64,000 nucleotides of DNA, taken from Reclinomonas americana ATCC 50394 (Eukaryota). The stretch's first letter is position 1. Each line of letters starts with the position of its first letter. Positions 1 through 62,890 of this stretch are shown piece by piece. Where the stretch lies: positions 1 to 64,000 of the forward strand of contig PS015421.1 of NCBI GenBank assembly GCA_048213135.1, written 5' to 3'. Under the pieces are notes generated by a model. It had not been told where the DNA came from. It searched no databases and saw nothing but the letters and a program-made list of their open reading frames with translations. The position numbers were made by a program, and so were the translations under genes.

Positions 1-264
1 TATGAGCAAGAAGGAGAGAGATGATTGTGAATGAAAAAAGGCACCTTGAGTCGACTCAACACAGGCTCCCACTCAATCACACGATTGCGCGGGTTGCTCA
101 TGGAGAGCAGTGTCTGCTTGAGGTTGGGCGGCATCGAGTCCAACACACTGCTCGGGGGAATGCTCGTCGCCTGTTTGCTTGTGTGTGAGAGAGAGACAGT
201 GGAAACGGCTCTGGGTGCCGCACACAGAGAGACTGGGAGAGGGAGAGGACAACGCAACAGACAT
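1..264 (-). CDS. Hypothetical protein, 5' part (runs off window)
   Basis: ATG TCT|gttgcgt intron ...acag|ATSIPPSSVLDSMPPNLKQTLLSMSNPRNRVIEWEPVLSRLK|gt. No motif recognised. Confidence 0.35.
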
Positions 265-583
265 GGAGCTCACATCGCCCAGTGACACACGCGTGGGTGG
301 CGATGGAGGAGGCACGGGCACGCTCATTGGTTTCGAATTGATTGAGGTAACGCACTTAGGTGACTCATGTCACATCAGATTGCAATATTTCGCACTTGTT
401 TCACTTTTTCATGGCGGCCAACAAAGGGCCATACAACAGAGGCAGAGCAGAACAGATAATAATAAGTAGACAATGAGAAGCGGGAGAGAGAGAGGAGGGG
501 TCGTCCATGAGACGAAAAGAGAGAGTAATTGAGTGAAATCAAAACTGTAGGGTTGGTGAGTGGCTCATGGAAATCGCGTGGTT

Positions 584-3504
584 TCACATGGAGCCGGAGT
601 GCGACAGGACTCCCATGGAGAGGGAGCGTGCGCGCGATGCAGGCGAGAAGCCGCCACTGCCACCACCGCCGCCACCACCACAGGATGGTGGAGGCGGGGG
701 CGGGTTGCCCCACAGTTGGCGCTCCTCGCGCTTGTGTGCGGCACAGTGCGCCTTGAAGCGCGCATCAAACATGGTGGTGTAACTACCCTGGCACAGGTCC
801 TGTGTGTGCGTGCACAAGAATGAGTGTCACAACGCTGCGGGCAAAAGGGAGCGAGAGAACGCAACAGGATGTGACGAGTGGAACTGGCGGTAGCCACCCT
901 GCAGCAGGAACAGCTGCGGGAAGTGCAGCAGCGGGTAACGCTGCACGTTGACTGTGCGATCCCAGTTGCGCAAGTGCTTCCACAGACGAGGTGCGCGGTG
1001 CGTTGAATACTCGCAGTGGAGCACCACACAGCGCGGACGTGGGTGCATGGAGAGCGGAACAAAAAAGAAGTCCTCAAAATCGTGCTTGTGACCGAGATTC
1101 CGTGCACCCTCAATGTGGCCGCCCTCGAACTCATACGGGTATCGGCAGTCGATGATCAAAATCTCGTCGCGGTTCAGAGTCGGCACGCCACCGCTCAACA
1201 TCAAGGCCAACTGCAACAAGGTGAGAAAAATGGAAGAAAATCCCTGCTCTTTCTTTCTCTTTCTCTCTCTCACACACAAACCGTCTCGGGCCGAATGGTC
1301 ACGCACGCCTTGTCGTTCAAGAACGAATCCACCATGGCGGGCTCCGGCTCCTCCAGATCCGACTCATGACTGCACAAATCAGAAGAATACCGGTCAGAAT
1401 ACAGAAGAAACAGGGAAACAGGTCACTGCGTGACACACGCACCCCGAATCACACGAGGCCAGCGAGTCTGGAGGGTCGCACGACGCCGTCAAATGGCGCA
1501 TTGCGCCAAAGGTGACGGTGTTGACCGAGGCGGCATGGCGGCGCTGTCGTCGTCGCGCAGCGCGGTTCACATGCAGCATGCCATCGTCATCCTGCACGTA
1601 GCCGCAGCCATTGTCGTCGCCAAACTCATCGTCGTCGTCGTCGTCGTACACGCCCAGATCGTCCACCTCACTGGCCGGACGACGCATCACACCATCCCCA
1701 CCAGCGGCAGAGGCGGCGCCCGAAGAAATATGTGCGCCACCGCTGCGCATGGTCGGGACATCACCGCCGCTNNNNNNNNNNNNNNNNNNNNNNNNNNNNN
1801 NNNNNNNNNNNNNNNNNNNNNNNNNNNNNNNNNNNNNNNNNNNNNNNNNNNNNNNNNNNNNNNNNNNNNNNNNNNNNNNNNNNNNNNNNNNNNNNNNNNN
1901 NNNNNNNNNNNNNNNNNNNNNNNNNNNNNNNNNNNNNNNNNNNNNNNNNNNNNNNNNNNNNNNNNNNNNNNNNNNNNNNNNNNNNNNNNNNNNNNNNNNN
2001 NNNNNNNNNNNNNNNNNNNNNNNNNNNNNNNNNNNNNNNNNNNNNNNNNNNNNNNNNNNNNNNNNNNNNNNNNNNNNNNNNNNNNNNNNNNNNNNNNNNN
2101 NNNNNNNNNNNNNNNNNNNNNNNNNNNNNNNNNNNNNNNNNNNNNNNNNNNNNNNNNNNNNNNNNNNNNNNNNNNNNNNNNNNNNNNNNNNNNNNNNNNN
2201 NNNNNNNNNNNNNNNNNNNNNNNNNNNNNNNNNNNNNNNNNNNNNNNNNNNNNNNNNNNNNNNNNNNNNNNNNNNNNNNNNNNNNNNNNNNNNNNNNNNN
2301 NNNNNNNNNNNNNNNNNNNNNNNNNNNNNNNNNNNNNNNNNNNNNNNNNNNNNNNNNNNNNNNNNNNNNNNNNNNNNNNNNNNNNNNNNNNNNNNNNNNN
2401 NNNNNNNNNNNNNNNNNNNNNNNNNNNNNNNNNNNNNNNNNNNNNNNNNNNNNNNNNNNNNNNNNNNNNNNNNNNNNNNNNNNNNNNNNNNNNNNNNNNN
2501 NNNNNNNNNNNNNNNNNNNNNNNNCGGCGACGACGGCGGTGCATGAGCACGTCGTCGTGCTCGTCTTCGTCTTCCACCTCCTCGTCAATACGCACAGTCA
2601 ATGTCGAGGCCACTGCAACGGTGTTATTGGAGGCGGCGGCGACAACTCGGTTAGCAGCACGTCCACCACCACCACTGCTGCTGCTGCTGCTGCTAGTGGA
2701 GGAGCTGGCGCTCTTGCCGTCGACACACGAGTCGAAGCGCTCAATGAGCGAGGAGCTGGGCGAGTGCAGGCCTCCACACACCACCAAGGCGGCGGTGCGA
2801 CGGCGATGCTGTTGCGGCGAGGTGCCGGCCGAGCGGTATGGTCTGCGCACAGCCAGGGGCGCCACCATCGGCAGCCCATGCTCATCCTCGTCCTCCTCCG
2901 CCACCTCAGCCTCCATGCGCGCATCTCCGCTCGGATTCTCACCCGGCGCAACCGCGGCATCATCATCATCATCGTCGTCCTCGTCCAGCAAACGCCGAGG
3001 CCGCGGCGCCGATGGCGGTGTGTGTATGATGCTGATCGGGCGCTGCTGCTGCTGCTGTTGCTGCACCACAGTGGCAGCAGGTTGCTGACGCGGTCTCAAC
3101 ATGACCGGCGACGGCGACTGCGCCAAGTGCAGCGTCGACAGCGAGCGCGCCATGCCCGTGACCGGCGACTGCGGGTCGTCCAGGCGTCCCGCAGCGGCGG
3201 CATTGGCAGTCAGCAGCACGCGCACAGAGAGCGGCGAGGCGAGCGGTGGTGGCATGATCGAGTCGAGCGCGGCGGACACATTCGCAGCAATTGTGCCGCG
3301 TCGCCGGCGCTCCTGGCTCCACACCACGTCGTCCTCGTCGGGGGCGCCGTCTCTGGACGAGGCCGTGGAGAAGGCATCATGCTGCAGGTCCACCGAGGGC
3401 GGCGACACAGCAGAAGAAGCAGGCGGTGGCGAGTTGGCGGTGATGAATTGGAGACTATTGGGTGTCTTGGCGCGTTTGGGTGGGTTTGGGCGGCCGTCTG
3501 CCAT
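584..3504 (-). CDS. CDC25: Cdc25-family dual-specificity phosphatase (multi-exon, spans gap)
   Basis: Rhodanese domain LIIDCRYPYEFEGGHIEGARN, active-site loop HCEYSTHRAP, DR...YPLLHFPQLFLLQGGYRQF. Long low-complexity SP-rich N-terminal region. Confidence 0.9.
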
Positions 3505-4809
3505 GTGCGTGATGTGAGTGGGACACTTGCAGAGGGTGGGAGCCTCCTGTTCGTCCTCGGCGGCGGCAGCAAGTGACGTTGCGGTCGAGCGCGCGACGAG
3601 AAGAACAACTGGATGCGCCGAGGCACCGCGACTCAATGCTGTAAGGAGAGAAGAGAAGAGAGAGGTGTGAATGCAGGTTCTCGCACACAACCAGACACGC
3701 ACACGCACGCACCCCACTCGCAGAACACACACGCAACAAGAAAAAGAATTAAAAAAACGGAACGAATGGGGAATACAAATTTCCAATTGTGCTTGTCGCC
3801 AAATTTCGCAACGGCCATGTTTTNNNNNNNNNNNNNNNNNNNNNNNNNNNNNNNNNNNNNNNNNNNNNNNNNNNNNNNNNNNNNNNNNNNNNNNNNNNNN
3901 NNNNNNNNNNNNNNNNNNNNNNNNNNNNNNNNNNNNNNNNNNNNNNNNNNNNNNNNNNNNNNNNNNNNNNNNNNNNNNNNNNNNNNNNNNNNNNNNNNNN
4001 NNNNNNNNNNNNNNNNNNNNNNNNNNNNNNNNNNNNNNNNNNNNNNNNNNNNNNNNNNNNNNNNNNNNNNNNNNNNNNNNNNNNNNNNNNNNNNNNNNNN
4101 NNNNNNNNNNNNNNNNNNNNNNNNNNNNNNNNNNNNNNNNNNNNNNNNNNNNNNNNNNNNNNNNNNNNNNNNNNNNNNNNNNNNNNNNNNNNNNNNNNNN
4201 NNNNNNNNNNNNNNNNNNNNNNNNNNNNNNNNNNNNNNNNNNNNNNNNNNNNNNNNNNNNNNNNNNNNNNNNNNNNNNNNNNNNNNNNNNNNNNNNNNNN
4301 NNNNNNNNNNNNNNNNNNNNNNNNNNNNNNNNNNNNNNNNNNNNNNNNNNNNNNNNNNNNNNNNNNNNNNNNNNNNNNNNNNNNNNNNNNNNNNNNNNNN
4401 NNNNNNNNNNNNNNNNNNNNNNNNNNNNNNNNNNNNNNNNNNNNNNNNNNNNNNNNNNNNNNNNNNNNNNNNNNNNNNNNNNNNNNNNNNNNNNNNNNNN
4501 NNNNNNNNNNNNNNNNNNNNNNNNNNNNNNNNNNNNNNNNNNNNNNNNNNNNNNNNNNNNNNNNNNNNNNNNNNNNNNNNNNNNNNNNNNNNNNNNNNNN
4601 NNNNNNNNNNNNNNNNNNNNNNNNNNNNNNNNNNNNNNNNNNNNNNNNNNNNNNNNNNNNNNNNNNNNNNNNNNNNNNNNNNNNNNNNNNNNNNNNNNNN
4701 NNNNNNNNNNNNNNNNNNNNNNNNNNNNNNNNNNNNNNNNNNNNNNNNNNNNNNNNNNNNNNNNNNNNNNNNNNNNNNNNNNNNNNNNNNNNNNNNNNNN
4801 NNNNNNNNN

Positions 4810-5540: not shown

Positions 5541-7060
5541 CTACTTCAGGTGCTTGAACAGCTCAGGAGCCGTCTGTGTGCATCGGAGGAGTGAGTGAGA
5601 ACGCCCAATTGCACGACGGGCAGATTCAAAGGAACGTGTGAGAAACAACTGCAGTGGTCAAAGCACAAGGGAGGGAGAGCAAGCCACAGACCAGATCAGT
5701 GAATGAGCGCGCCGTGCGTGCATGCGAAGCACGACGGACAGCGATACGAAAAGAAGGAAAAAAGAGATTCAACTGCAAGCACTGCAGAAGCGAGGGAAGC
5801 AGCCACGAGAGGTGCCAAAGATAAGATGCCGTGATGAGCAATTCCAACGCCGAGCACATGAGAAGCACGATCGCGGCAGAGATACCAAAAGAAAAACAGA
5901 GGAGAATGAGATATGCAGTTGCAGTGATCGGTCAAAGGAGAGCAGCCATGAGAGACACAGATGAGAGACGATAATGCGTCGTGCATGGAATGAGAAGCAG
6001 ATACCCAAAGAACGACACTGACGAGCATGAGAATCCAGCTGCAGTGGTCGAAGCAGAAGCGAGGCATGAGAGGTCCCACAGATCAGCAGCTGCATGATGA
6101 GCAATTCCAGCGCCGAGCACATGAGAAGCACGATCGCGGCAGAGATACGAAAAAACCAACAGAAGAGAATGAGAATCCATTGAAGCAGAAGCAAGAGAGC
6201 AGACACACAGAGATGAGAGATGATAATGCGCATGGAATGAGAAACACGATCGCGGCAGCGATACGAAAAGAACAACAAGAGAATGATGATCCAGCTGCAG
6301 TGGTGGAAGCAGAAGCGAGGGGGGGCAGACACACACAGATCAGAGACGACTATGCCGCAAGCAACTCCGCGTGAACAACAGATATCCAAAGAACGAGCAT
6401 GAGAAATGCAACAGCAGTGACCAAGCACAAGTGAGGCATGAGAGGTCCCACAGATCCGTGCTGAGCAATTCCAACGCCCATCAGCAAAGCACCGAGGAAA
6501 AGCACAGCTCCGCGGGGTACGCAATCCAATCTCCTTCCACAATCAAGGAATACGATGCAATCACGAACCAATACCCGCACACAATAGACACAGACAGACA
6601 GGCAGCAAGACAGCCAGAAAGAATGACTAGGAAGAGGAGAAGAAGATGCTGCATTTTTGTGCAAAAAACGATACGCAACATGCGAGTCGATGCACTTCCA
6701 CAAATCCTGCAGCGCTCTGCACACACACACACACACACACAAAGTCAGCGATGCTCACTCTCTCTCACTGCTCACACTGTCTCTGTGAATGTGCGAGTGA
6801 CGCACCCACTGCAGTCTCCATGTGCACCCGCATTCACACGCTCCTCGCACGAGGCCAGTGATTTCCGGAACACGTGGCAGTGCTTCTCCTCGTTGTGCGT
6901 GTCGAGTGCCGCCTTGGGATCCTGCACAGACACACACAAAGAGCGTCATTTACCGCGACATGGCCCAAAAACACACTCTTCCCCACGACACACAACGAGC
7001 AATGAAGTGCGGAGAGAGTGCGTGAGAGAGAGCAACATGCAAAAGGCACACACTCACCAT
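5541..7060 (-). CDS. QCR6: Cytochrome b-c1 complex subunit 6 (hinge protein), 4 exons, about 62 aa
   Basis: Spliced product M|DPKAALDTHNEEKHCHVFRKSLASCEERVNAGAHGDCSG|ALQDLWKCIDSH|TAPELFKHLK* matches the hinge pattern DP..C..CxERV..DC..D..C.D..A..LF..LK. Confidence 0.88.
5700..6480. repeat. Degenerate tandem duplications inside the 1.1-kb QCR6 intron (5574-6679)
   Basis: gatgagcaattccaRcgccgagcacatgagaagcacgatcgcggcagagatac at about 5833 and 6096; gaggcatgagaggtcccacagatc at about 6061 and 6433. Confidence 0.8.
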
Positions 7061-9306: not shown

Positions 9307-10362
9307 TTACTTGCCGCGGTTCAGCTCGTTCCACTCGTGCATCTCCATGCCGTCGGGTGCGCTGCCTTCGACCTTTTTCTTGCCGACCTCGTCCCAGTTG
9401 GTGGACAGCACCGTGCCGCCGCTCTCGTACTGCACATGGGGCGAGATGAGTGTGTGCAGTTGGGGGAGGGGAGGGACGCGGCATTTACACACGCAACGTA
9501 GGACTTGAGCATGGCGCGTCGCGTGTCTTCCGTGGCGTTGGCGTAGATACCGGAGAGGAGCTTTTGCAGGGCGGCGTCGCCCTCTGGCTTCTCGTTCTTC
9601 TCCTCCTCCACCACCTGGTGTGCAATGGCGTCAAAGTCGTGGCGCTTGGTCGACGACGACGGATACTTTTTCGGATCAAAGCCCGCGGGCGCTGTGGAGG
9701 ATGCTACGCGATCGAGAGGAGAGGTGAGCGCGAGAGTGGCTGCCAAAGGAAAAAACAACGAGCGGTGTTGTCGCACGCAACATCGCACAACAGACGAGGA
9801 CACGCCTGGCCGTGCATCGGCGGGTCTCTCCAGCCCTGACCACTTCTCGCCGGGGCGCGACTTGTTGAACTTGATCTCGACCTTGGTCGGCAGGAAGCGC
9901 GTGGTCAGCGACGCGGGATCCACCGGCGCGAACAGCGGGTCGGCCTCCATTTGGAACTCGCGACCGTCGCCGAGGCACAGCTCAATGTGCAGCTGTGTGC
10001 GCGCACGTGTCAGTGTGAGTGGGAAGAGAACGACACTGAGGGCGAAAGTACCGTTTCGGAGGTGAGGCGAATGTCAGCCGAGTCGGCGACCACATTCTTG
10101 GCCATCACGTCAACGGTGACGGCGGTCGTCGTCTGGAACCACTCGAAGCGGATCTTGGTCGGGTCCACAATCATGGGCGTCGACGGCGGGTGGATGGCTG
10201 CTGATGCCGGCACGGCACCACGCGGTGCAGCGGGAGCTGGTGCTGCTGGTGCTGGTGCGGCGCTTGCTGTTGTCGTTGTCGTGGTGGTGGTCGTTGTAGC
10301 GGTGGATGAGGAAGCAGGCTTGTCGGTTTCCATCGCCGCAACACCGTCGCCGCCACCGCTGA
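9307..10362 (-). CDS. SGT1: SGT1 CS and SGS domains (on an apparently inverted contig)
   Basis: CS domain [17 protein letters not shown]...TKVEIKFNK...W. SGS domain YPSSS...[61 protein letters not shown]. Confidence 0.93.
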
Positions 10363-11068: not shown

Positions 11069-12357
11069 ACCGACTGGGCGTCGGCGATGCGAGCGGCCAG
11101 TGCTGGCGTGGAGGCGTTGAGTGAGTGCAGTGAGCCTCTGGCGCCCATGTTGCGGTGTCGACTGCTGTCGCGCAAGGCTCTGGCGGTGCATCAGTGCAAG
11201 CGACCGAGTGCAGTGCTGCGCGATAGTTGCGTCTGTCTGTCTGTCTGTGTGCCTTCTCAGCTCCACGTGCTGCTGTCGAGTTGACGCGTCTTGACGGGTA
11301 GCGCTGGCCATGCTGAACTCGGTGTTTGAGGACGATGCGGAGGCGCTGTGGGCGTCGGTGGTGCAGCCGTTTCGAGAAAAGGAGCTGGAGTTGTCGTTCT
11401 GGGTGGCGTGGGAGGAATCGCTGCCGCTGTCGACGCTGTCGGTGGCCACGCGACTGGCGATCTGTCGGCAGTGTGTGCGACTTGGCGAGTACGACGAGGA
11501 TGTGGTGCTGAGAGTGGTGGCGGCGGAGATGATGAGTCGGCATGGCGATGAGCTGTCGTTCTCGTTGGATGAGGTGTGCACTGAGCCGCTGCTGGGTGCC
11601 ATGCTGGGCGGCCTCATGGAGCGGTACCCGAACGCGGGCGAGTGGATCGCGTCGGCGTCTCGTGATGCACCCGAGCAGAACATGGTGTACAGTTCCGAGG
11701 CCGACGCCGTCCTCGGCGTGTTTCGACGCATTGTGGATCACGGTGAGCACCTCACCTCCCTCCCCCCCTCTCTCTCTCCCCTCGTGTCTTCTCACTGTTG
11801 GAGAATGGGTGGCAGGCGAGGATCGGCATCGGCAGGTTCTGCAAGACGACCGCCGTTTCGCTCTCATTCTCGGTTTCTACCTCATGTTTTCACTCAACAT
11901 GGCCGAGCCGGCCATGGTGCTGGCACGTCAGCTGGTCGGCCTCGGTCGTTGCGTTGCGCCGTGTGAGTGTTGTTGTAGGTGAGGTTCATGTGCTCACCGT
12001 CGACTGACATGCAGCCGAGTGGAAGCAGCTGCTGGTCGATCTGCACTTTTTCGATCGCATGCGCCACGTGACTGGCCTCGCCCGCACCCCCGACGAGCAG
12101 ATTCAGTTGTACAAACAGTTCCTGTTGGAGATGGGATTCACCGAGGGTGAGGCGCAACGTCGGTTTCTTGTTGTTGTAGTTGTTGTACTTCGTGTGCTCA
12201 TCGCACGGCAGACGTGTTGCCGGAGCGTGCGCCCGTTCAAGACCCACTGCCACCAGCGCGTCCGGTCATGTCGCCGCTGGTACCAATGTCGGTGGAGTTG
12301 GTGCCGGAGCTGCCGGCTGGCCACCCGGCGAGCGAAGACTTCCCCATACCGCGTTGA
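11069..12357 (+). CDS. Probable continuation of the TPR protein (C-terminal exons)
   Basis: Phase-0 acceptor then TDWASAMRAASAGVEAL...LLSRKALA completes the TPR begun at 8938-9197. Five exons, ends DFPIPR*. Confidence 0.6.
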
Positions 12358-17767: not shown

Positions 17768-17865
17768 CTTCCCTGTTTCCTCCTTTCCCTCACACCCCGC
17801 CTGCCTGCCTGCCTGCTTCCTTGCCAGTGCGTTGTATAAAGAACGNNNNNNNNNNNNNNNNNNNN

Positions 17866-18476
17866 TGCGCCAGAAGCGCGAGGTGCACACGTTCCCCGCA
17901 CACTTCCCTGTCACGGCGGTGTCGTTCTCGGATGCGTCGGATCAGATCTTCTCCTCTGGCATCGACAATGTGGTGAAGGTGTGGGACGTGCGCAAGCAGG
18001 CGCAGCTAATGTCCATGGAGGGCCACGAGGACACCGTCACGGGCATGTCGTTGAGTCCGGACGGCTCGTACCTGCTCACCAACTCGATGGACAACACGGT
18101 GCGCATCTTTGACGTGAGACCCTTTGTCGCCGACGGCGTGCGCTGCGTGAAGGTGTTTTACGGAATTCAGGTGAGTGATGCGGATAAGGAGAGGAGTGAG
18201 GAGAGGAGAAAGGCTCATGTTTTGTGTGTCGCACAGCACGGTCTGGAGAAGAATCTGTTGCGATGTGCGTGGTCGTCGGATGGCACCAAGGTGGCCGCCG
18301 GCTCGGCCGACACGCCCTCACACGTGTTTGTGTGGGACACGGCCACACGCCGCGTGGTGTACAAGCTGCCGGGCCACGGCGGCAGCGTCAATTCAGTGCA
18401 CTTCCACCCCTCGGAGCCCATCATCGCCTCGGCCTCCTCCGACAAGACCATTTTCCTCGGCGAGTTGGAGCTCTGA
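17866..18476 (+). CDS. SNRNP40: U5 snRNP 40-kDa WD40 protein, C-terminal half (inverted contig)
   Basis: DQIFSSGIDNVVKVWDVRK...GHEDTVTGMSLSPDGSYLLTNSMDNTVRIFDVRPF...HGLEKNLLRCAWS...YKLPGHGGSVN..FHPSEPIIASASSDKTIFLGEL*. Confidence 0.93.
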
Positions 18477-18971
18477 AAACCCCCCACTACGAAAAAAAGA
18501 CAATGAACGGCGCGGTAATGGTGTGCATGGTGGTCATCATCCTTTTCCCCTTGNNNNNNNNNNNNNNNNNNNNNNNNNNNNNNNNNNNNNNNNNNNNNNN
18601 NNNNNNNNNNNNNNNNNNNNNNNNNNNNNNNNNNNNNNNNNNNNNNNNNNNNNNNNNNNNNNNNNNNNNNNNNNNNNNNNNNNNNNNNNNNNNNNNNNNN
18701 NNNNNNNNNNNNNNNNNNNNNNNNNNNNNNNNNNNNNNNNNNNNNNNNNNNNNNNNNNNNNNNNNNNNNNNNNNNNNNNNNNNNNNNNNNNNNNNNNNNN
18801 NNNNNNNNNNNNNNNNNNNNNNNNNNNNNNNNNNNNNNNNNNNNNNNNNNNNNNNNNNNNNNNNNNNNNNNNNNNNNNNNNNNNNNNNNNNNNNNNNNNN
18901 NNNNNNNNNNNNNNNNNNNNNNNNNNNNNNNNNNNNNNNNNNNNNNNNNNNNNNNNNNNNNNNNNNNNNNN

Positions 18972-34500: not shown

Positions 34501-34503
34501 CAC
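25572..34503 (-). CDS. TmcB-like multi-TM protein with 3 PAS domains and a C-terminal class III nucleotide cyclase domain (start uncertain)
   Basis: Hydrophobic N-terminal TM block and helical TPR-like region. PAS repeats GIIEFANRMVTRVLGY, TDTQGIVQEVNEAAVQLFGY, TDENGEVEWCN. Cyclase motifs ERVKTIG, FRIGVNTGPV, FDLYG|DSVNMASRMES, KGIG. Confidence 0.85.
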
Positions 34504-46458: not shown

Positions 46459-47369
46459 TTTTGTGCGCACCTGTACTGCCCGCTGCCGTGGTGGTCGTGC
46501 ATCCGTCGGCTGCAGTTTACGCACCGCCACCGCCGGCCTCAGCGGCGGTGCCGGCCAGCGAAGTGTCACTGCCGCGCGAAATGTTTGAGCCGCTGCACTT
46601 TGCCACTGTGCAAACACAGCTGGCGTCGCACTCGGGCATGGTGATGGTGGTCGACTCGATGTGGAACATTCGCTTCTGCAATCCCATGACGCGCGATCTC
46701 ATGGGTCTCACGGAGGCCGTGGCCAGTGTTCCGTTGCGTACACAGCACAGACGGAGAGTGGGAGGAGACAGAGTGGGAGTAGAAAGCACTCTTGTTTGTC
46801 ATTTCCACTCTTGTTCCTGCTGACCTTCTTCTCAGACAGTGGGGAGAGACAGAGTGGGAGTAGAAAGCACTCTTGTTTGTTCTTTTCCACTTCTCCGTCA
46901 TTCACGTCCACTTCCCTGTTTCACTCCTCTCTCTCATTCGCTCACTCTGTTCCCTCACTCTTCGTGCTTGTTGCTTCTCTCATACACGCACTATCTCCTT
47001 AAGCTTCCCCTTGTGACTATCGCCTTCCTCTTGTGACTCTCGCCTTCCCCTTGTGACTCTCGCCTTTCTCTTGTTGTCCCTCCCGCTCACCTTCTTCTCC
47101 TCCTCCATTGCAGTCTGAGCACTGTGGACCTGCCGTGCACTCCGACGCTGTTCGAGGTGCTGGGCGCAATGATCAACGGCGGTCTCAACATGTGCGTGCG
47201 CACCTCGCCACCGTGGGTGGTGCAGAGATCGCCCAAGCTGGCGTATGGCGTCTCTGCTGCGGCCTCCGAGAGAATGGTGGTCATGTCGTGCGTGGGCCGA
47301 CAACTGGTCGACACGGATCAGTTTGGCGGTGCACTGTTTGCGGTGGTGACCACGGTACACCCGGTCTAA
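43587..47369 (+). CDS. Homeodomain transcription factor with C-terminal PAS-like domain
   Basis: RRVTRRE|TALLEDVYQRNPYPTREEKEVLANQLQTSW|NVINIWMQNRRARERK; C-terminal MVMVVDSMWNIRFCNPMTRDLMG. Confidence 0.85.
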
Positions 47370-50600: not shown

Positions 50601-51734
50601 AGGACAAGTCCGGAATGATACCGGTGAGATCTGATGTCGGGCAAGCGATGAATATCCTTCGCAGCGCGAAATCACCAACGACAAGGCACGAGCGGGTGCG
50701 TCACGCAACAGTCCCAGATTTGCGGCACGGAACGCAGCACATCGCGTGCATCCACCAGGCCCTCACCCGTGGCATCCCACTCCGAAAACAGTCCCTCAAT
50801 CACCGCCTGCTTGAAGTGATCCGACTGCAGCAGCTCCTCCATCGGATCGCCACCACCCGCTCCCGGCTCGCCCAGCTCATCGTCCCCTGTGTCCTCGTAC
50901 ACACCCGCACTGCCGTCTGTCTCATTGTCGAGACCAATCGAATCGCCGGCCTCGAACTCAACAGCCGCATGCTGCGGATGATTGTCGATGGGAGCTGCCG
51001 CAGAGGCGGCCGCTGCAGACACAGCAGAGGCGGAGGCAGGCGCAGGAACCTGTGCCTGTGGCTGCGACACCGCCGCCGTCGCCGACGGTGGCATGTGCGA
51101 CTGACTGCCCTTGGCCGGCGCGGGAATGTGATGCTTGAGCGTGCCAGGCGGCAGTCGGCGCACCGCTCCCGCCGGCGCCCCCACCGTCAGCGCCACATAC
51201 GGTCCGCCCTCCTTCTCGTTGGCCTTGTGCCGCGCACGCAGCTTGTCGGCAATCTCCTCCTTAACGTGTTGCCCATCTGTTGCCTCGTTGATGAGTGATA
51301 TCATAGAGATGAACGAGATGTCCTTTTCTCTCTCCCAGTGTGTGTGTGTACGTATCACTGTAAAGTTCCCTTGCGCTCTCATCCCTTCCAGGCCCCGTGT
51401 CTCTGTCTTGTTGCTGCGTGCCTCTCTCTCTCTCTCCCGCTCTCTCTGTGCCTTGTTATTCTTCTTTCTCTCTGCAACTCACCCTTCGCGGTCTCCTTGT
51501 ACTCTGGAAACGGCAGCGGATGACCACCACATTCGGCCAAGAAGCTGCACCGCACACGCATCAGCACCTCACACACACAGTCTTCCTTCTCTCTCCTCAG
51601 ACTCACTTTGCAGCGAAATGGTACAACGACGACGGTTTGGCGCGAGCCACTGCCTTGATCAGCTTCTTCACGGCCTCGGCAAACTGGTCAGGAACAGGCA
51701 CTTGTTCCACAGAATGCAGCTTTGAGAAATCCAT
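47699..51734 (-). CDS. RIIa dimerisation/docking domain + multiple EF-hands (radial spoke RSP7-like)
   Basis: N-terminal EQVPVPDQFAEAVKKLIKAVARAKPSSLYHFAANF (ropporin/RIIa-like). EF loops DHDQSGSIDVHE, DSDSSGFIDEKE, DRNHDG, DRNADGVLSRDE. Confidence 0.8.
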
Positions 51735-52022: not shown

Positions 52023-52506
52023 CTGTGTGTGTATACACGTGTGTCTGTGTCTCTCTATACATGCGCACACAGTGCGTGTGTGAGTGTGTGTGCGCATGCT
52101 CGACAATGTCCACACACTCACACTCTCACTCTCTCTCCACCAGGCGTGGCCGTGATGAACAACGACGGACACATTGTGGAAGTTGCGTCTCTCTTTGCTT
52201 CCTTCTCTTCCTTTGCCTCCACAGCAATCTCATTGGAGAGCATGTGTGCAGAAATCTGGCGAGGTGTCGGAGGACGACGCACAGCAGATCTTTATGCTGC
52301 TGCAAGACACACACAGCTTGTTGAGCACGGTCGGTGATCCGTCGCTGCAACGTGTCACCAGTTGCGACTACGTGTGATGAGAAAAAAAAAAGGAGAAATC
52401 ACTCTTTGATTCACCCTCTTTTCCGATTGCAGTCTCGTTCCGTGCCGCGTCGTATGTCATCACCATGGGCAACGATCGGATATACGTGGTCAAGAAGCGC
52501 TTGTGA
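51755..52506 (+). CDS. LAMTOR4: Ragulator complex subunit LAMTOR4
   Basis: LEAVHNQIGVAVMNNDGHIVE|KSGEV...LQRVTISFRAASYVITMGNDRIYVVKKRL* resembles the LAMTOR4 roadblock fold. Alternative in-frame ATG at 51897. Confidence 0.8.
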
Positions 52507-52595: not shown

Positions 52596-53666
52596 TCATT
52601 TGTCGCTTCCGGTCATGTGTACATCGCCGCGGCCTCCTCCACTTGCTCCTCCACCGCCGCCTCCTCCCGCTATTGCGGAAGATGCGGAGGCTGATGAGGG
52701 TCCGGTGGAGGAGCCATTCGCTGCTGATGCTGCCGCCGCTGCTGCTGCTGCTGCGGCTGCTGCTTGCGCGGCCGCCTGCTGTTGCATCTGCTGCTGTGTG
52801 GTGGTGGAGGAGGAAGAGGAGGAGGACGACCCGGATGTTGGCCAGCCTTGGATGTGCATGAGGTAGCGCAGGTTGCGGTCGAGATTCTTCATGTTGCTGC
52901 GCTTGGGATCGTTGGAGCCGACAGTCTGCGTGGCGAGGTGAGAGCGATGATGCGATGGGGAGCAGGGACCGCAGACACGCGCAACTACAATGTTGACTGA
53001 GGCACACTTGGGCGGCAAGTGCAATCCGTTGTCCTTGAGTTGGGTGCGGAGATCGGTGACCAGGCTGTCCAGGTGACTCTTGTCTGCGTCGAGGGCATGA
53101 GATGGAAGGAATCAAGAGGCGGCGGAGCGAAGAGCAAACGTAGCGCAACGCTCAAAATCAAGCGAGGTGAAGCCGCAGTCAAAGGCCGAGTCGCTGGGAT
53201 GAGAGACGTGAGAACCCCGGAAAGTGTGAGGAGAGAGAGAGAGAGAGAGACGACACGGGACGAAACATGGCATCAAACAGGGCGGTAGCCTCGGTGCGCG
53301 TCTGCTCCAACAGGGCGCGAGCCTTCTCCACCGCCGTCACATCACGATCGCACGTGTTGTCTTCGCGCTGCCGGCACATGTTCTCAAACTGCAGTCTCCG
53401 CTGCTTATCCTGCACCAGCACCAGTGAGCCGACACAAAAATGGACTGCCGCCCTCACTGCACGCAACAAACGGCGGCGCCTGTGCTTGCGGAACGGTGTT
53501 AGGAGCGCGCATTGCCAGTGCTTGTTGCTGCTGCTGTTGCTGTTGTTGCTGTTGCTGTTGTAGCTGCTGCTGCTGTATCTGTAGTTGTTGTTGTTGTTGT
53601 TGCTGCTGCTGCATTTGTTGTTGTTGCTGCTGCTGCTGTTGTTGTTGTTGTTGTTGTTGTTGAATG

Positions 53667-54771: not shown

Positions 54772-56209
54772 TCACTCAAGTCCCTTCTCGACTTCGCCGT
54801 CATCGTACTCTTCCTCTTCGCCTTCACCGCCACTGGTGTAGTCGAGGGCCTGTTCTGGCTCCACTCCACAGCTGTCGCTCGCATCATCTGCGTCGCGCGA
54901 CGGCGGCGCTCGCGGTGGCGAGCCCGACTGCAACTTGGCGAGGAACGACTCTTCGGTCCACCACCATCCGCCTTTGTCGCCGCCACCGGCCGCACGCAGA
55001 CCAGCCTCCAACAGCGAGCGCGCCGTGTCTTCCAGCAACTGTGGGCGGGCCACGTGGCGTCGCCAGTCGTCGGGAATGGCGTGCACACCGTAAAAGGCAC
55101 CGGCGAGTTGTCCGTAGATGGCGGCGGTGGTGTCCGAGTCGTTGCCGAGGTTGATCACCAGCAGGCATCCCTCCTCGAACGAGTCGGTGTTGAAGAAGGC
55201 CCACAGAGCGGCCTCCATGGCGGCAATGACAAAGCCGGTGCCGTAGACCTCGTCGCGACTCTTGGCCTTGTACGCGCCACGAGCCACGCCACGCACCCGG
55301 CCCTGCAGCTCGCGCTTCGGTTGCTTCCAGTAGCTGCGACCCAACTGTGCACAAGGGAACTGAGTCGTGCACCAAAGCGAGAGACACCAGCAGGAGGTGT
55401 CCACGCAACGACGCAAAACTCGGGCGACAACAGCTGCTTCTTGGTGCAGCCGGCGAGCGCTCCGACAATGAGACTGGAATAGTAGCGGCAGGCGTCGATG
55501 CACAGCGGACTGCGGTGCGTCGTGCAGCTGCTCTCACCGGCCTCCTCAATGGCGGCCTCGGCGCCCGACGCAAAGAAGAAGAGCGGTGCGGCACCGATCC
55601 GCATCAGCGATCCATTCCCCGAGTACTTGATATCGGTGCTGGCTCCGATCTTCGGATCGCGCTTGCCATGTCGACAGTAGCCCGACAACGCCGCACGAGT
55701 GGTGTTGCCAATGTCGAAGCAGCCGCGCTTGCTCGAGGCCAGATAGCCCTTTCCGTGTCGCCAGCGCAGATAGTGCGACAGCTGATTGTTCAAATCGGTG
55801 CCTCCGCACTCGACGAGCGAGGTGGCCAGGCACAGAAACATCGACGTGTCATCGGTCCACTCGCCCTTCTTCAAGTTGTGCGGGCCCCCGCCATTCATGC
55901 ACGTCACTGCCGGAAATACACATGTGAGCATACGAACCCACGCCAGCGCGGAAAGAAACCCAATGAGTGTGCACGCACCTGTGCGAAAGGAATTCCGCGG
56001 CTTGAACTCCACTTGCGCGCCAACAGCGTCGCCCGTGGCGCAACCAAACACACACCCGAGATATCGATCTGTACATGCATACAAATATGAGCCCGATCCA
56101 GTCAAGATGAGAGCAAGAAAACCAAGAACACACCAATGAGCGGCATGCCACCCGTCTCCAGTGTCTCATACGACACGCCACTGCCACTGCCACTGCTGCC
56201 ACTTGCCAT
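54772..56209 (-). CDS. ADP-ribosylglycohydrolase (ARH/DraG/Tri1 family)
   Basis: [67 protein letters not shown]. Confidence 0.93.
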
Positions 56210-56414: not shown

Positions 56415-56907
56415 ATGTCAGTGGCGTGCCCGAATGGGTGTGGAACGAGTGTGGAGAGTGAGTCTGCGTTGATTGCGCATCAGAGATGGTGTATCAAGGG
56501 ACGTGTTCCGTGTCCGTTTCAGAGCTTTGGGTGTGACTTGACAGTTGCGTTCGAGAAAACGACTTGTCTCTTGTCACGTGTTTTGCTCATTGTCATCATC
56601 ATCCAGTGTGCGCGTGATGAGCTTGGGCGGCATGAGCAGGAGGATATGCACTTTCACTTGTCGTTGCTGTGTGCCACGTTTCAGGAGCGGTGAGTGGTTG
56701 AGCGAGGAGAGTGAGAGGCAGAGGGAGAGAAGGGAGAGAGAGAGAAAGGCGAGGAAGTGGGAGTGAGGGGGACAGGGAGAGAGAGAAGGGTAAGAGTGTG
56801 TGCGTGAGAGAGAGATGGATGATGGAGAAAGGGCGAGGGAGGGAGAGAGACAGAGACAAAGAGAGAGTGAGAGGAAGAGGAGTAGAGAGAAGAGAGAGGA
56901 AACGAGG

Positions 56908-57051: not shown

Positions 57052-57100
<49 letters not shown>

Positions 57101-57250
57101 TAGTAGGAGGAGGGAGGGAGTAGGAGAGTAGTTGTGAGGGNNNNNNNNNNNNNNNNNNNNGTACGTACGTACGTAGTACGTACGTAGTAGTAGTAGTAGT
57201 AGTAGTAGTTAGTAGTAGTAGTAGTAGTAGTAGTAGTAGAGTGAGTGTAG

Positions 57251-57301
<51 letters not shown>

Positions 57302-60300
57302 ACTTTGAGGAAGAGGGGGAGAGTGAGAGAAGTTTAGTGAGTGAGCGATCATGAGTGATTGTGATTTGAGGTCATCGTCGCAGCATCTCTCTCATCCTGT
57401 CTCTCCTCTCTCCTCTTCTTCTCTTCCAATCACTTCTCTCAACTCTTCTCTCCCCCTCTCCCTTCCATCTCTTCCCTCCCTCTCTTCTATTCTCTCTTCT
57501 CGTCTTCGCCCCATTCTCCCTGTCCTCGCTTCTCTCTTCTGTCCTTGCTTCTTCCCTCCCTCTCTCCTCTCGTCCCTTTCTCTCCTGAAACCTCTCCTTC
57601 TTCCCTCACTCTCTCCTCTCTCTTGTCTCCTCCCTCTCCCTTCTCCCTCCTCCCTCTCCTCCATTTGTCTCCCTCTTCCCTTCTCTTCTTGTCTCCTCCT
57701 TCTCCCTTGTCTCCTCCTTCTCCCCTCCTCTCCCCCCTTTCTCTCCTTCGCCCTCCCCCTTTCCCTTCTCCCCCCTCTGACGCCCTCTCCTTTTCCCAGC
57801 GACACCGAGTATCGCAAGATCATTGCGGAGAAGGACCAGATGGTGTCGGCGTTGCACCAGTCGGTGGTCGACTTGACGTCGGTGTTGCAGGATAAGGAGA
57901 GCACGATTGCGGAGCTGAAGAGCGGCTATCGCTCCATGCAGGACCTCATGTCACGACTCATGGTCTCTTGTCATCGTCATACCCTCTCCTCCTGTGCTGT
58001 CGCTCACTCCTCTCTCTCTTTGTGTTGTGCCAGACCGAGTCACAATCACAGGCACTGGCTGTGGCGCATCTGCAGGCCGCCGTGCACGGATCGGCAGTGG
58101 CGACAGCAGCGTCGGCGTCTGCGGCACCGGCATCACCACGCAAGCAGCAATCGCCGGCTCGATCGCAGAGTTTTGTAAATGTGCGCTCGTTGACGCCGGC
58201 GGCCGCGGCCGCGGCGACGCCACCACCGACAGGAAGCCTGTCTCCACGGTTGCGTTCGTCGAGCCGTGGTGGTGCGGACACGCCAGAGTCGCCGCGGGTC
58301 GGCAGCTTGCGGGATCTGTCGGCCGCCGGTATGGCACCGGCGGCGGCGGCGGCACCGACAGCGCTCTCGCCCGTCTCGGGAGCCATTGCGATTGCGCCTG
58401 CGGCGAATCGGCGCAGCAGCTTGGCCGAGGTGGCACCGCGCACGGCGTCTCCGAAAAAGGATCACGCCCGCGCCGAGGTATAGAGTGTGCTGTGTGTAGA
58501 CTCATTTGCAATCGCTGTTGCTGACCACTCATTGCATTCAACAGGCCCAATACCCACCTCGCAAAGCGCCCACCGCCGAAGCTCTCGTGCCCGCTGCTCC
58601 CTCCCCGTCACCTGGCGTTGGTGCCGAGGCCGCCACAGTGTCGTCGTTGCCGAGTCCGCGCCGACGTGGCAGTGGCGTTGCGGTGGCTGTTTCACCGACT
58701 GCGGCCGCCGCACTCAGTGCCTCGCAGTCGGCACCGCCGTCCATGGCTCTGGGTGCAGTTGTTGCGGCTGCCCCCGCAAGTGCCGCGCCGGTGCCACATC
58801 CAATCGTACCGACTCTGTCGCTGGCGTCGGCCGGTCTGTCGAGCCCCGTGAGCAACGCCAAGCATTCGCCTCGCATGTCACCACGCAGCATCTCGTCGGG
58901 CCGGCCACCAGTCGGTCTCACGGGCGGCAGTTCACCCCGCCACTTTGCCACTCAGTCGTCGTCGGTGGCGGTGGCGGTGGCAGTGGCGCCCGGCTCACCC
59001 GCTCCCGAGGTGACGGAGACCGTGTCGGACAGCGAGGCCCCGTTGAGTGCTGGCCGCCGACCACCACTCGGCACCTCGGCCGACCGTCCACGCACACCAC
59101 CTGCACAGCCGTCTGCGTCGCCCACGGTTTCCCCATTACGGCCGCGCACCGGCACTCCCATGCGTTCCAATCCCGAAACTCGTCGCAATATCATTAATCA
59201 GCTACACTCCAAAATCCCCCGCAAGACCGGCAGTCCGGTGCCGCCTGCAAGTGGCGACAGCGGCAGTGGCCTGACCAGTGTTCACACCGCCCCTCCAGGC
59301 CTGCTGCTGGCACAAATAAGAGAGGCGCAGGCGCAGGATGAGTCGCTGGCGGCGTCACCAGGTGAGCGGGTACTCTCGAAAGGTCCCACATATCCAGTTG
59401 TGTGGTCTCACGCGCCTTTCTTTTCCCCCGCGACAGACTTGCTACGTGTGAGTCGAATAAGTGGTGGAGGTGGTGCTGATGACGATGCGTCGGCGGGTGG
59501 CTCCGATCGGAGAGCATCGCTCAATTCGTCGTTTGAGAGCTCACTGGCAGACGATGGGCGGTCCTCGGCGCTCATGTCACTGCACTCTCCTCGGAGGAAT
59601 TCAGCGCGCGACATTGTGGCCAGCTCCATGGAGGAGCGGCGCGATCCGTCGCCTGAACTCGCCATTCCGCAAGTGTCGAGCCTGTTGCCACCGTCGGCCG
59701 AGCTGCAGCGTCGCTTGTCACATCAGAAATCGTTGCGTGCTGTGCGCACTTGTTGTGTTGTCGCTCACATGTCTCCTCACTTGTGACACACCAGACCAAC
59801 GAGCGCCGACTATACGGTTTTGTGCCCGACGTGTGGCCGCAAGGTTCCACTCGAGCGTTTTGAGAAGCACGAGCAAATGTGCCAGAAGAACGATTCAGCG
59901 GTGCGTGTGTGCTATTGGGGTGATGCGCAATAAGTGGTAATGGCGTCATCCTCAATCATCGTGCAGAAACGTGCCGTGTACGGCTCGGTAAGTTCGATTC
60001 CTAGTCCGGGCTCGGCCACCGGACCCGCCACCCCGCAGTCCAGCAGTGCGGCGAGCAGCGCCAGCAGTTCATCGTCAACAACACCAAGTGGCAATCCACC
60101 TGGGCCCACCTCCGCGTCCAGTCAGCCAGCCACATTACCGCGGCCCAAGGCGCACAGCAATGGTCGAACGGCGTCTGTGGGTGGCGCGGCTGCTACGGGC
60201 GACGGTCGCTCACCGCGCGCCTCACCACCCAGTAGTCCACCCACCACAGCATCGAGGCAGGCAAGGCAGAGCCCGCCACCTGCCAACGGGCGTGCTTCGG

Positions 60301-60668
60301 CGCGACCATTGTCGTTTAGTGGCAGCTCGCTGGCGGCCAGCAAGAACATGCCTGCGGATTCTGTTGTGCGGAGCAGCGGGTCAACCTCACCCACTGGATT
60401 TACACGTGCTGCTGGTGCCTCTGCATCGGCACTGCCGATGCCGGCCTCCTCAGCTCGTTCACCAACACGGCAACCCTCGTCGGCGACCGGCATTCCTTCA
60501 CTGTTGCGCTTTGGGAGTCTGTGTGTTTGATCCTCTCTGCCTTGTTTTTGCTGACGAGGACGCCGACATTGCAGCAGATCGGCCCAACAACGACTCGTCC
60601 GGTCATCGCGCCCCGTAAGTGCGTCGGGCAGCGGTGCGCCAGCCACCAACGGTAGCAGTAGCCGGTAG
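56415..60668 (+). CDS. TRAF-type zinc finger + coiled coil + Ser/Pro-rich protein with C2HC zinc finger
   Basis: VACPNGCG...H...C...VPCPFQSFGC...H...H, heptad region, CPTCGRKVPLERFEKHEQMCQK...KRAVYGS. Confidence 0.75.
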
Positions 60669-60790
60669 CAGTGGGTGGTGGTGGTGGAGGAGGCGGATGT
60701 ACGAAAAATACCCAAATGAGAATCGCGCACGATAGGCTCCACGAATGCAAGCTGAATCCAGTCATTTATGATAGATTTCGGTTCCAGCCG

Positions 60791-62890
60791 TCACACCTTG
60801 TAGTACGCTCCCATTCCCTGCGTATCGTCGTGATCTACCTTGGCTTGGGCCATGGACCGCTTACTGCCCGACCGTCGCCGACGCCGGCACCACCACTTAT
60901 CCCAACATGATGCCGAGATCTGCTGCACGTCGCCGCTGTCGCCGCGGTGCAACAGGGAGGTGGCCGAGTGCGTGCGACCCGAGGCCGTGTCGTCAAACGG
61001 GTCGCCGCCCGACTCGCCGTCATCGTCTCGCGTGAAGCTGTGCGGGCAGATGCGACGGCCGATTCCACGCACCAAATCGGTGAAGAGAGTGCGGCCGACT
61101 CGTCGCACACCGCGTCGGCTGCGATGCAAACCGCGACCCTCGCTCTTCAGCTGGTACACCAAGCGGTTGCAGTGTTGCGAGAGGCGGAAGCGCGGATACA
61201 GATCGCTCTGCATGCTCACGTAGACGTGCCGCTGAGCCTCGTCAAACGTGCGCGCATGTGTCCGTTTCTGCGCAAAGTCTTCCACAATGGCCGATCGCAG
61301 CACGTCTGCCCATGGGACGCCAGTGAGCAACTCGAGTCGCTGGTGACAGATGATGTGGTGTGCACACGCGTACCTGAAATGTTGATCTCTCGCATCGACC
61401 CGTCGGCAATGAACCTGTCGAAAATGCTCTGCGCCAGCCCCTCCCACGCCGGTGTGCCCTCTCTTCGGTGTAATTCGTCGACCTGCACATACACACACTC
61501 CCAGCATGAATCGACGAGCTGCAATGTGGGTGTGCGGCACCGCAGACGCAACAGCCAAGTAAAACATCAAGTTCTCCTCGGCATACGACTCCTCGAGGTA
61601 GGCCTCTGTGGACGCACACCCCGTGGTGAGAGAACACACATGAGAGAGAGAGAGAGAGAGTGAAAAGGAGAGAGAGAGCTAGAGGGAGAGAGACGAATGG
61701 AGAGAGAGAGAGGAGGGGTGCTCGTGTCGTGGAGGGAGAAAACACGCACCGAAATAAAAGAGACCGAGTGGGTCGCGAATGAGGTCCTTGACTTGCTTTG
61801 GTAATACCTGCACGGAGATGAGTGAGTGTGTTACTTGCAGGCGAGAAAGCCATGCAGCAGACCGTGGTCTCTGTGAGCCCAAACACCAGAGCAATTGCCA
61901 GACCTGCGACAATCGGAGGGTGAGGACAAGGACCTGAGCTTACCCTTCTTGTCTCTTTCTACTCCTCCTCCCTTCCATGTCCCCTCCTCTTTCTCTCCTT
62001 GTGCTATCCCCTCTTATCGTCCTTCTTCCGCTTTTCTCTCCCCTCTGTCACAATACGAAGGACATATAGCACTCACCGCTGAGGCCCTTCGAGACAACGG
62101 CAAACCACACCAACACGTTGGTGGCCGACGTGGCATCGACCGAGTCCATCAGGCGGTACGCCAGTGGGAACACCCAAAACGCCACAAAGAGCACAATGTA
62201 CCTGTTCCACAGGTGAGCACCACGACACGGACAAACGTGACTGGCCACCACGCCGCCACGCAACACAATGGTCTGCTTCTTGGCGCGGATGGTGGCCAGG
62301 TACACGGATGGCGGAATGGAGCCGAGATTGGGTGAGCCGCGGAGAATCATGGACATGCGCATGGCCGGCTGATCGCCGTTGCGTCGCGAGGCCACTGCAG
62401 CAGAATGATTGTGAAAATAAGCAACACAAGGCAATAAGGAATAGATACACTGCTGGAGCACGCAACGTGAGGTGCGGTTCGCGGCGCCATCGAGAATGTG
62501 CTGCTCAAAACCGTCAGAAGCAAGAACAAGGGAGATGAGTCGAAGAGGGCGGCTTTTGATACTCACCGAGCGGACCATCATCCACGACGCTTCGGTGGAG
62601 TTGCGCGGTTGTTCGGTTCGGGCTGCAGTGGTGGCGGGGGCTCGAGACGCCTCGCCTCGCGGCGTCGTGACCATCTCGGACATCTCCACTGAGCGGTCGA
62701 CGGCCAAGCGTGGCGTTGCGACAGGTGTCGCCGGCGCCGTCGGCGGCAGCAGCACCACGGTTGGGGGCGCAAATGTCACGGTGGCCTCGCGCCTCGGCGC
62801 CGCCGGTGATGTGGGGATGGAGGAGCTGGGATCGGTGGGACGCGGTGACATCATGGGCGACTCTGCCACGGCTCCAGTCGACAGTGCTGC
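60791..62890 (-). CDS. 7TM-RGS protein: ICL3, TM6-7 and RGS domain
   Basis: RYIVLFVAFWVFPLAYRL...KGLS|GLAIALVFGL, then LIRDPLGLFYF|EAYLEESYAEENLMFYLA...IFDRFIADGSMREINIS...FDEAQRHVYVSMQSDLYPRF. Confidence 0.85.

Follow-up and report, generated by a model that had tools for sequence, protein, structure and literature searches.

Judged from the introns predicted in a 64,000-nucleotide stretch of the Reclinomonas americana ATCC 50394 genome (positions 1 to 64,000, forward strand, of contig PS015421.1 in assembly GCA_048213135.1; hereafter the window), the GTTGCGT class of U2-type GT-AG 5′ splice sites (donors) is genuine and abundant, and serves exons whose last base is A, C or T. Donors of the forms G/GUNNGU and H/GUUGCGU, where the slash marks the exon-intron boundary and H is any base but G, are instances of one seven-base pattern, G-[G/U]-U-N-N-G-U, which is cut after its first G in the former and before it in the latter. 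The phenomenon is real and probably a variant of noncanonical-register 5′ splice-site recognition, one that is new and used at high frequency. The window is eukaryotic, with approximately 55% G+C, dense genes, short introns and 17 assembly gaps that together comprise 5672 N.

Donor Use in Predicted Introns

Introns were predicted with a purpose-made semi-Markov gene model that combines codon log-odds (first trained on Pfam-matched stretches) with exact treatment of split codons and introns of 40–400 nt; an earlier version, which allowed introns of up to 1200 nt and lacked an acceptor term, produced mostly junk long introns and was replaced. In its donor-agnostic form the model requires GT...AG and includes an acceptor term, with no donor term past the GT. 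GTTGCG was the top donor hexamer in both donor-agnostic runs, being used by 10/67 and 12/80 predicted introns against a background of 91 among 7598 GT sites (1.2%; binomial p = 8e-9 and 2.5e-10, respectively), and in two more cases the model chose a GT three bases upstream of a GTTGCG. The same model applied to the reversed sequence as a control predicted 20 introns, none of them with a GTTGCG donor. A further run, in which a donor term was learnt only from intron positions +3 to +8 (the trained run), placed a GTTGCGT donor at 19 of its 74 predicted introns. Among short predicted introns (≤150 nt) the share of GTTGCG was 9/40 and 10/47 in the donor-agnostic runs and 16/50 in the trained run. 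A first-pass annotation of this DNA had described a common second class of donor, and the result is stronger than that claim, since GTTGCGT is the commonest single donor heptamer in the window. GTGAGT, GTGCGT, GTATGT and GTGTGT donors occur alongside it. A lineage-wide transformed donor of the Entamoeba type was considered and is rejected, as the class is not near-universal, the motif being found in only 9/40 to 16/50 of the short predicted introns.

GTTGCG occurs 91 times in the window, compared with 51.6 ± 6.4 expected from 100 dinucleotide shuffles (none of which reached 91), and GTTGCGT occurs 44 times, compared with 11.9 expected under a second-order Markov model. Within the gene spans of the two donor-agnostic models, sense and antisense copies of GTTGCGT stand at 22:3 and 26:3 (binomial p = 1.6e-4 and 1.5e-5), whereas GTTGCG followed by a base other than T gives 19:13 and 17:14 in the same spans; a sense bias that is present in GTTGCGT and lacking in GTTGCG[A/C/G] points to a transcript-strand signal that includes the T at +7. 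All 20 of the GTTGCG sites listed in the first-pass annotation, as well as the GTTGAGT at 7218, carry the motif on the strand that was given and follow a base other than G, and +7 is T in 18 of the 20, the others having A (52361) and C (60503).

GTTGCGT is not three-periodic, in contrast to the other enriched GT-heptamers, and an origin in repeats or codon periodicity is rejected. The wider proposition, that the heptamer is enriched for reasons other than splicing (codon pairs, repeats) and that the true donors are neighbouring sites, draws on the crudeness of the gene models, many of whose other donors look wrong and which skip true exons such as the small TMBIM exon before 35708, and on the site at 55409, where neighbouring in-frame donors are inseparable by homology. 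It is nonetheless very improbable in view of the strand bias specific to the +7T form, the lack of three-periodicity, and the residue-exact junctions at 9497, 19062 and 35708, at which an in-frame GC donor would add a residue.

The −1 Base and the Shared Footprint

Twenty-eight of the 91 GTTGCG sites are putative donors, in that they were predicted by a gene-model run or listed in the first-pass annotation. At the last exon base (−1) these have 11 T, 11 C, 6 A and no G, and 26 of them have +7T; the remaining 63 sites have −1G in 12 cases and +7T in 18 (−1G in 0/28 vs 12/63, Fisher p = 0.015). For the short introns of the donor-agnostic runs, −1G precedes 0/9 and 0/10 GTTGCG donors as against 19/31 and 20/37 of the rest (p = 0.0014 and 0.0025), and for those of the trained run the figures are 0/16 and 20/34 (p = 3e-5). 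Donors with +5G carry −1G in 13/14 and 16/21 cases in the two donor-agnostic short-intron sets; for donors that combine +5G with +6T the proportion ranges from 13/14 to 17/20. The rule put forward in the first-pass annotation, namely that GTTGCG follows a non-G base and that −1G goes with the ordinary register, holds in the donor-agnostic predicted short introns.

The register was also examined by classing the short donors of the donor-agnostic runs solely by the position of their distal GT, at +5/+6 or at +6/+7. Donors with −1G were distributed 10 to 1 and 13 to 0 between these two positions in the respective runs, and donors without it 0 to 10 and 2 to 11 (p = 3.4e-5 and 2e-5); T is found at +3 in 11/11 of the shifted-type donors. 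The constant spacing between the G and the distal GU, together with the complementary use of −1G and +1G, suggests that recognition takes place in a fixed register.

A small recurring class of G/GTTTGTGTG donors, predicted at 1281, 32706 and 49373 (all on the minus strand), has +3T but +5G/+6T and in every case follows G, and so obeys the same rule as the canonical register. GTTGCGT follows a G at three sites only (28033, 43065, and 58249), none of which was predicted as a donor.

Junctions Anchored by Protein Homology

Junctions were anchored with profile hidden Markov models (HMMs) built from fetched homologues, and with Pfam. Continuous conserved protein is restored when the introns at 9497, 19062, 19289, 19452, and 35708 are removed. 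Of the sites that had been presented as well anchored, those at 9497, 19062, and 35708 proved to be residue-exact and those at 19289 and 19452 were placed to within a few residues, a precision that the rest did not attain. At the three exact sites, cutting at an in-frame GC 3 nt further downstream would leave one residue too many for the profiles, which identifies the first GT as the donor.

The 68-nt intron of the SGT1 gene, in its SGS domain (9430–9497, minus strand; donor tac/GTTGCGTGT), was predicted in all three gene-model runs; the exon frames and HMM positions are contiguous after ...KSY with no spare residues, and the Pfam SGS profile is matched at 2–51 and 50–82 on either side. SNRNP40, likewise on the minus strand, has an intron of 69 nt at 19384–19452 (tct/GTTGCGTGG; HMM 55–81 before and 80–111 after), which was predicted by one donor-agnostic run and the trained run and has no other in-frame GT seen near by, and another of 61 nt at 19229–19289 (aac/GTTGCGTCG; HMM 80–111 and then 109–167; donor-agnostic and trained runs). 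A third, of 80 nt at 18983–19062 (cga/GTTGCGTTT), lies at HMM 167/168 and its removal joins ...DTVR to LWD..., a WD-repeat motif (DTVR-LWD) that would be broken by the gene model's alternative donor at 19057. In the TMBIM/Bax1-I gene, the 84-nt intron at 35625–35708 (minus strand; ctc/GTTGCGTGG; Pfam Bax1-I profile 99–127 and 122–195) appears in the HMM alignment as a 28-residue insertion with a stop between ...KKDFSFL and GPALF..., and this insertion is exactly GTT...CAG.

The 70-nt intron of the RGS-domain gene (61483–61552, minus strand; gct/GTTGCGTCT; donor-agnostic and trained runs) leads from ...EENLMFYLA to VDELHR..., the Pfam RGS match being taken up again in the opening residues of the following exon. 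A 65-nt intron in the ADP-ribosylglycohydrolase gene (55345–55409, minus strand; gtc/GTTGCGTGG) separates Pfam profile positions 1–187 from 192–287, which lie in two frames; when 102 donor/acceptor combinations were scored, 55412, 55409, 55404, and a GC at 55406 came within 2 bits of one another, so that homology does not separate the donor.

The sites at 865, 6679, 36335, 56544, 52182, and 52361 are placed solely by frame logic or gene models; at the first four the motif is present and no Pfam stretch crosses the junction. The 66-nt intron in the Cdc25-like gene, after the rhodanese domain (800–865, minus strand; cct/GTTGCGTTC), was predicted in all three runs and begins 3 residues after the end of the domain. 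At the putative QCR6 donor (6673–6679, minus strand; cat/GTTGCGTAT) UCR_hinge profile positions 1–42 lie in the upstream exon, the putative second TMBIM donor (36329–36335, minus strand; ctc/GTTGCGTGC) falls towards the N terminus of the TMBIM HMM, where the alignment is weak, and the zf-TRAF match extends 4 residues past the putative TRAF donor (56544–56550, plus strand; aca/GTTGCGTTC). The small gene that had been named LAMTOR4 had no Pfam match at E ≤ 0.5, and two of its exons gave no relevant PDB match, leaving the name unconfirmed. Its 70-nt intron (52182–52251, plus strand; gaa/GTTGCGTCT) comes from a three-frame reading, the trained gene model having paired this donor with a closer acceptor to give 43 nt. 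A second intron, of 72 nt with A at +7 (52361–52432, plus strand; cca/GTTGCGACT), comes from frame reading, with no gene-model prediction; it contains stops, and the open frame resumes after it and runs to the stop codon.

Relation to Other Introns

All 51 introns compared (51/51) end in AG, and intron interiors are 64% C+T. In the trained set, the median length is 69 nt for the GTTGCG class and 69 nt for the other class, and composition is similar. A branch-like CTSAY motif is found 7–26 nt from the 3′ end in 11/18 GTTGCG introns, with similar spacing in 25/33 other introns and two outliers at 49 and 101 nt. Equality in length, with similarity in composition and in branch-motif distance, suggests that the two classes are one kind of intron. 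U12-type (minor) introns lack a pyrimidine tract, have their branch site near the 3′ end and carry a conserved donor of extended length. Membership of that type is rejected, given a donor of GTTGCGT, sequence information that stops at +7/+8 in the GTTGCG introns, and 3′ parts that resemble those of other introns.

Many introns of similar length that share one sharply defined heptamer could also be expected if recently spread intron-generating elements (introners) carried the motif as their conserved 5′ end, with the −1 base reflecting the target site. Among 18 class members, however, only 1 of 153 pairs shares a match, which is 13 nt long and of low complexity, and the end of the information at +7/+8 and the likeness to other introns in length, composition, and branch-motif spacing further reduce this explanation to one that is scarcely credible.

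A Proposed Fixed-Register Model of Donor Recognition

The footprint G-[G/U]-U-N-N-G-U would be read in one fixed register, most likely by the U1 small nuclear RNA (snRNA) 5′ end, with the first G paired to C9, the U to A7, and the distal GU to C4 and A3. The cut would follow afterwards, at the GU available in the footprint, that is, after the first G in canonical donors and before it in GUUGCGU, where cleavage would thus fall one base upstream of the position set by the register. In addition to U1 acting as the reader, the model supposes that U6 and the catalytic centre would tolerate the extra U at +3. A one-base shift of the shared footprint relative to the cut is what would be predicted if U1 kept a fixed register and the cleavage site slid, and the +3 U of the shifted donors (11/11) is the base that would face A7. 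On balance, though by no wide measure, fixed-register (shifted) recognition by the U1 family is judged to explain the GTTGCGT class.

A number of observations weigh against this explanation. The sample is one 64-kb window in which donors are known from DNA-based prediction, and 19/40 and 21/47 of the short predicted donors fit neither register, many of these being probable mispredictions. With the standard U1 5′ end, RNAduplex gave −2.9 kcal/mol for Y/GUUGCGU, −3.5 for H/GUGCGU, −6.1 for G/GUGCGU, and −10.5 for G/GUGAGU; computed for bare RNA, without pseudouridines or proteins, it found no clean helix for GUUGCGU in either register. In this calculation a plain shift on standard U1 is energetically weak (−2.9 kcal/mol), and H/GUGCGU is rare here (0 to 2 cases) though its duplex is no weaker than that of Y/GUUGCGU. 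Standard U1 favours A at register +4, opposite U1 position 5. C occupies that position in 10/11 and 11/11 shifted donors, compared with 2/10 and 3/15 canonical ones. At +4/+5 nearly every shifted donor reads GC, in contrast to the varied canonical donors; a plain shift does not explain this, and likewise does not explain why −1G is avoided rather than merely dispensable. Of the earlier suggestion that shifted or bulged recognition is a major mode in this genome, the sequence pattern and the frequency speak in favour, while a plain shift on standard U1 fits poorly with respect to duplex energy and the C at +4.

Recognition could alternatively remain in the canonical register with a bulged U at +3 (or +2), such that G+1 and U+2 are paired, one U is flipped out, and GCGU pairs as do +3 to +6 of GUGCGU. 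GUUGCGU is indeed GUGCGU with one U added, and single-nucleotide bulges at +2/+3 have been validated as a register in humans (68 predicted sites in Table 3 of PMC4856993). In such a register, however, −1G would add the C9 pair and so be favoured or neutral, as opposed to the 0/28 observed, and the bulge does not predict the strict link between a non-G −1 and the extra U; it is accordingly regarded as improbable. Neither shift nor bulge accounts for the avoidance of −1G.

It has also been considered that the standard machinery does not slip at all and that GUUGCGU has a lineage-specific reader, which might be a protein cofactor or else a U1 (or U6) variant, co-evolved or additional, with a recognition box unlike the standard one. 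The C at register +4 (10/11 and 11/11 of shifted donors), together with the frequent GTGCGT and GTACGT canonical donors, suggests a G opposite it in the reader, and with an ACGUAC-type box the RNAduplex energies strengthen to −5.3 kcal/mol for the shifted class and −12.0 kcal/mol for G/GUGCGU. A U1 carrying G there, of the type reported for Mastigamoeba, would pair more strongly with every donor class observed. Co-evolved U1 boxes are on record in Entamoeba and Mastigamoeba, and Physarum is reported to have standard and modified U1s; in the same source, however, Thecamonas and Mamiellales have standard U1 boxes despite +4C donors (10.1101/2022.06.08.495308). Furthermore, the canonical and shifted classes share genes, such as TMBIM and the Cdc25-like gene, and if U1 were complementary to the whole of GUUGCGU, with the customary C coming next, it should prefer −1G, a combination that never occurs. 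A reader of this kind is therefore thought to be rather unlikely.

More tentatively, the fixed register may reflect a near-obligatory pairing of a G at the C9 slot in this lineage. Where the exon lacks that G, the +1G of the intron would supply it and the cut would routinely be made one base upstream, enabled by a changed U1 box (with G opposite register +4), by a second U1 or U6 variant, or by a dedicated cofactor. If this were true, roughly a quarter of the organism's introns would be spliced through a register slip that in humans is a curiosity, and the organism would provide a natural system for learning how the cleavage site is fixed after the U1 hand-off.

Comparison with Known Systems

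Shifted and bulged U1 registers have been experimentally established in human cells, and in the sections of PMC4856993 drawn upon here the validated noncanonical registers together account for ∼1.5% of 201,541 donors, with +2/+3 bulges at tens of sites. The class described here is like the human shifted (+1) register (Roca and Krainer, 2009, as presented in PMC4856993) in that GU is followed by U or a non-consensus base, with the consensus block one base downstream, and in that the cut is still made at the GU when −1G is lacking. It is unlike that register, which is rare in humans (PMC4856993), in its frequency (∼20–30% of short predicted introns), in having GCGU in place of AAGU as the block, in pairing that stops before +8, and in its weak duplex with standard U1. 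With the bulged and asymmetric-loop U1 registers (PMC4856993) it has in common an additional nucleotide of the intron separating the GU from the distal G-U pairs, and a donor of more than 6 nt, but the exclusion of −1G is not predicted by a bulge.

In Entamoeba the donor GUUUGUU is accompanied by a co-evolved U1 with AACAAAC, and in Mastigamoeba a +4C donor is accompanied by an ACGUAC U1 box, showing that the U1 box can change in protists (10.1101/2022.06.08.495308). The donors of this group resemble the class in having +3U and an extension to +7U, and +4C in a relative. In Entamoeba, however, ∼88–90% of a small number of introns share the motif, which is in the canonical register (+5G, +6U; 10.1101/2022.06.08.495308), whereas here two registers occur in an intron-rich genome and the G is at +6. 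As far as they are described in the portions of that preprint used here, none of Entamoeba, Mastigamoeba, Thecamonas, and Mamiellales is a two-register system with +6G. The STAT3 tandem donor, for which noncanonical U1 and U6 registers have been proposed, shares the idea that U6 is also out of register, although it is a single human tandem site and not a genome-wide class (PMC11162779). Literature searches on the heptamer and hexamer strings, and on shifted registers in candidate protist lineages, returned nothing on splicing; figure logos and supplements were outside these searches, and an earlier description in a genome paper is possible. For the splice signals of Monosiga, Acanthamoeba, and Thecamonas, the sole relevant item found was the Entamoeba preprint (10.1101/2022.06.08.495308).

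A genome with a common shifted class and a clean rule, in which a non-G −1 goes with an extra +3 U and GCGU is moved by one base, would offer natural substrates in quantity and a clear evolutionary trace of the constraints on register, and may hold another case of co-evolution between snRNA and splice site. Debate continues over what fixes the precise point of cleavage once U1 has left, with regard both to the transfer to U6 and U5 and to the part played by proteins such as SNRNP27K, LUC7, and U1C; the question has so far been addressed on a few rare human sites. In practical terms, gene finders trained with one 6-nt donor matrix will mis-score the GTTGCGT class, and a donor model with two classes, or a longer one, is needed to annotate this genome and its relatives.

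Additional Introns and Donors

A candidate in-frame intron of 78 nt (or 90) in the SGT1 linker (9704–9781, minus strand; gat/GTTGCGTGC) was predicted in all three runs and is not anchored by homology; aligned to the SGT1 HMM, the protein shows a 30-residue insertion at the same place, where the linker is poorly conserved. The lengths of this intron (78 nt) and of the SNRNP40 intron at 19384–19452 (69 nt) are multiples of three, and the former is free of stops, such that if retained it would be read through as a 26-residue insertion (30 residues with the 90-nt alternative).

Introns predicted in all three runs are located on the plus strand at 11226–11301 (76 nt; ata/GTTGCGTCT), at 46733–47113 (381 nt, long and so less certain; tcc/GTTGCGTAC) and, in the N6-adenine-methyltransferase-domain gene, at 40448–40508 (61 nt; aca/GTTGCGTGG), where 2 residues separate the end of the Pfam match from the donor, and on the minus strand at 29913–29989 (77 nt; gat/GTTGCGTTG) and 50631–50709 (79 nt; act/GTTGCGTGA). 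One donor-agnostic run and the trained run predicted introns at 29697–29772 (76 nt, minus strand; gtc/GTTGCGTGG) and 34354–34602 (249 nt, minus strand, also less certain on account of its length; tct/GTTGCGTGC). Those found with the trained donor model only are at 33462–33658 (197 nt, minus strand; gct/GTTGCGTCT), 59732–59794 (63 nt, plus strand; atc/GTTGCGTGC), and 62395–62466 (72 nt, minus strand; cac/GTTGCGTGC). At 11948–12014 (67 nt, plus strand; gtc/GTTGCGTTG) the trained run used the GTTGCG donor and one donor-agnostic run a GT 3 nt upstream, at 11945.

The motif is likewise present at three less firm putative donors of the first-pass annotation, at 252–258 (minus strand; tct/GTTGCGTTG), 28769–28775 (minus strand; cgc/GTTGCGTAC; the gene model preferred a GT at 28770), and 60503–60509 (plus strand; act/GTTGCGCTT, with C at +7). 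Related donors of the shifted type were predicted at 3757–3763 (minus strand; ttc/GTTCCGTTT, with +6G, +7T, and a non-G −1) in donor-agnostic and trained runs and at 53260–53266 (minus strand; cat/GTTTCGTCC) in the trained run, and a second GTTTCGT donor, at 26134, was predicted in both donor-agnostic runs. The sequence GTC GTTGCGT, which presents two in-frame GT donors three bases apart, is found at 11945/11948 (plus strand) and 55412/55409 (minus strand), and these may possibly be tandem donors that differ by one codon.

Genes and Other Features of the Window

Most of the gene names given in the first-pass annotation agree with Pfam matches on open frames. These matches include a rhodanese/Cdc25-like gene (830–1363, minus strand), SGT1 (SGS domain), WD40/SNRNP40, Bax1-I/TMBIM, zf-TRAF, RGS, and UCR_hinge/QCR6, and further matches are to PAS, EF-hand, homeodomain, N6-adenine-methyltransferase, and ADP-ribosylglycohydrolase domains. 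The best protein matches of the SGT1 gene are animal SGT1 proteins. SNRNP40 shows 51–59% identity to the matches listed, animals and plants alike, and a search of metagenomes with an SNRNP40 exon yielded relatives at 53% and 30% identity only, which are too distant for orthologous introns. The 5′ exons of SNRNP40 (profile 34–167) are on the minus strand at 20631–19060, while its 3′ half (profile 170–346) is on the plus strand at 17866–18553, between gaps at 17846–17865 and 18554–18972; on the basis of these opposite strands, the contig piece 17866–18553 is probably inverted in the scaffold.

No match to Rfam was found in the window at the gathering cut-off and no spliceosomal snRNA at E ≤ 1, the only hits being 15 far-sub-threshold matches to microRNA (miRNA), small RNA (sRNA), and small nucleolar RNA (snoRNA) models. 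Introns and spacers are rich in (GT)n, (CT)n, (GTCT)n, and C-rich runs, for example at 6717–6805, 57250–57470, and 63360–63460, and such simple repeats account for the sub-threshold miRNA- and snoRNA-model matches at approximately 57250–57500 as well as for inflated counts of GTGTGT ‘donors’ in the gene models.

The ADP-ribosylglycohydrolase gene extends over 54775–56165 (minus strand) with a first exon at 55158–56165, the best matches of which have 44–54% identity; the few of these that are named by organism are bacterial. Carrying as it does a predicted spliceosomal intron, the gene may possibly have been acquired laterally and have gained the intron thereafter.

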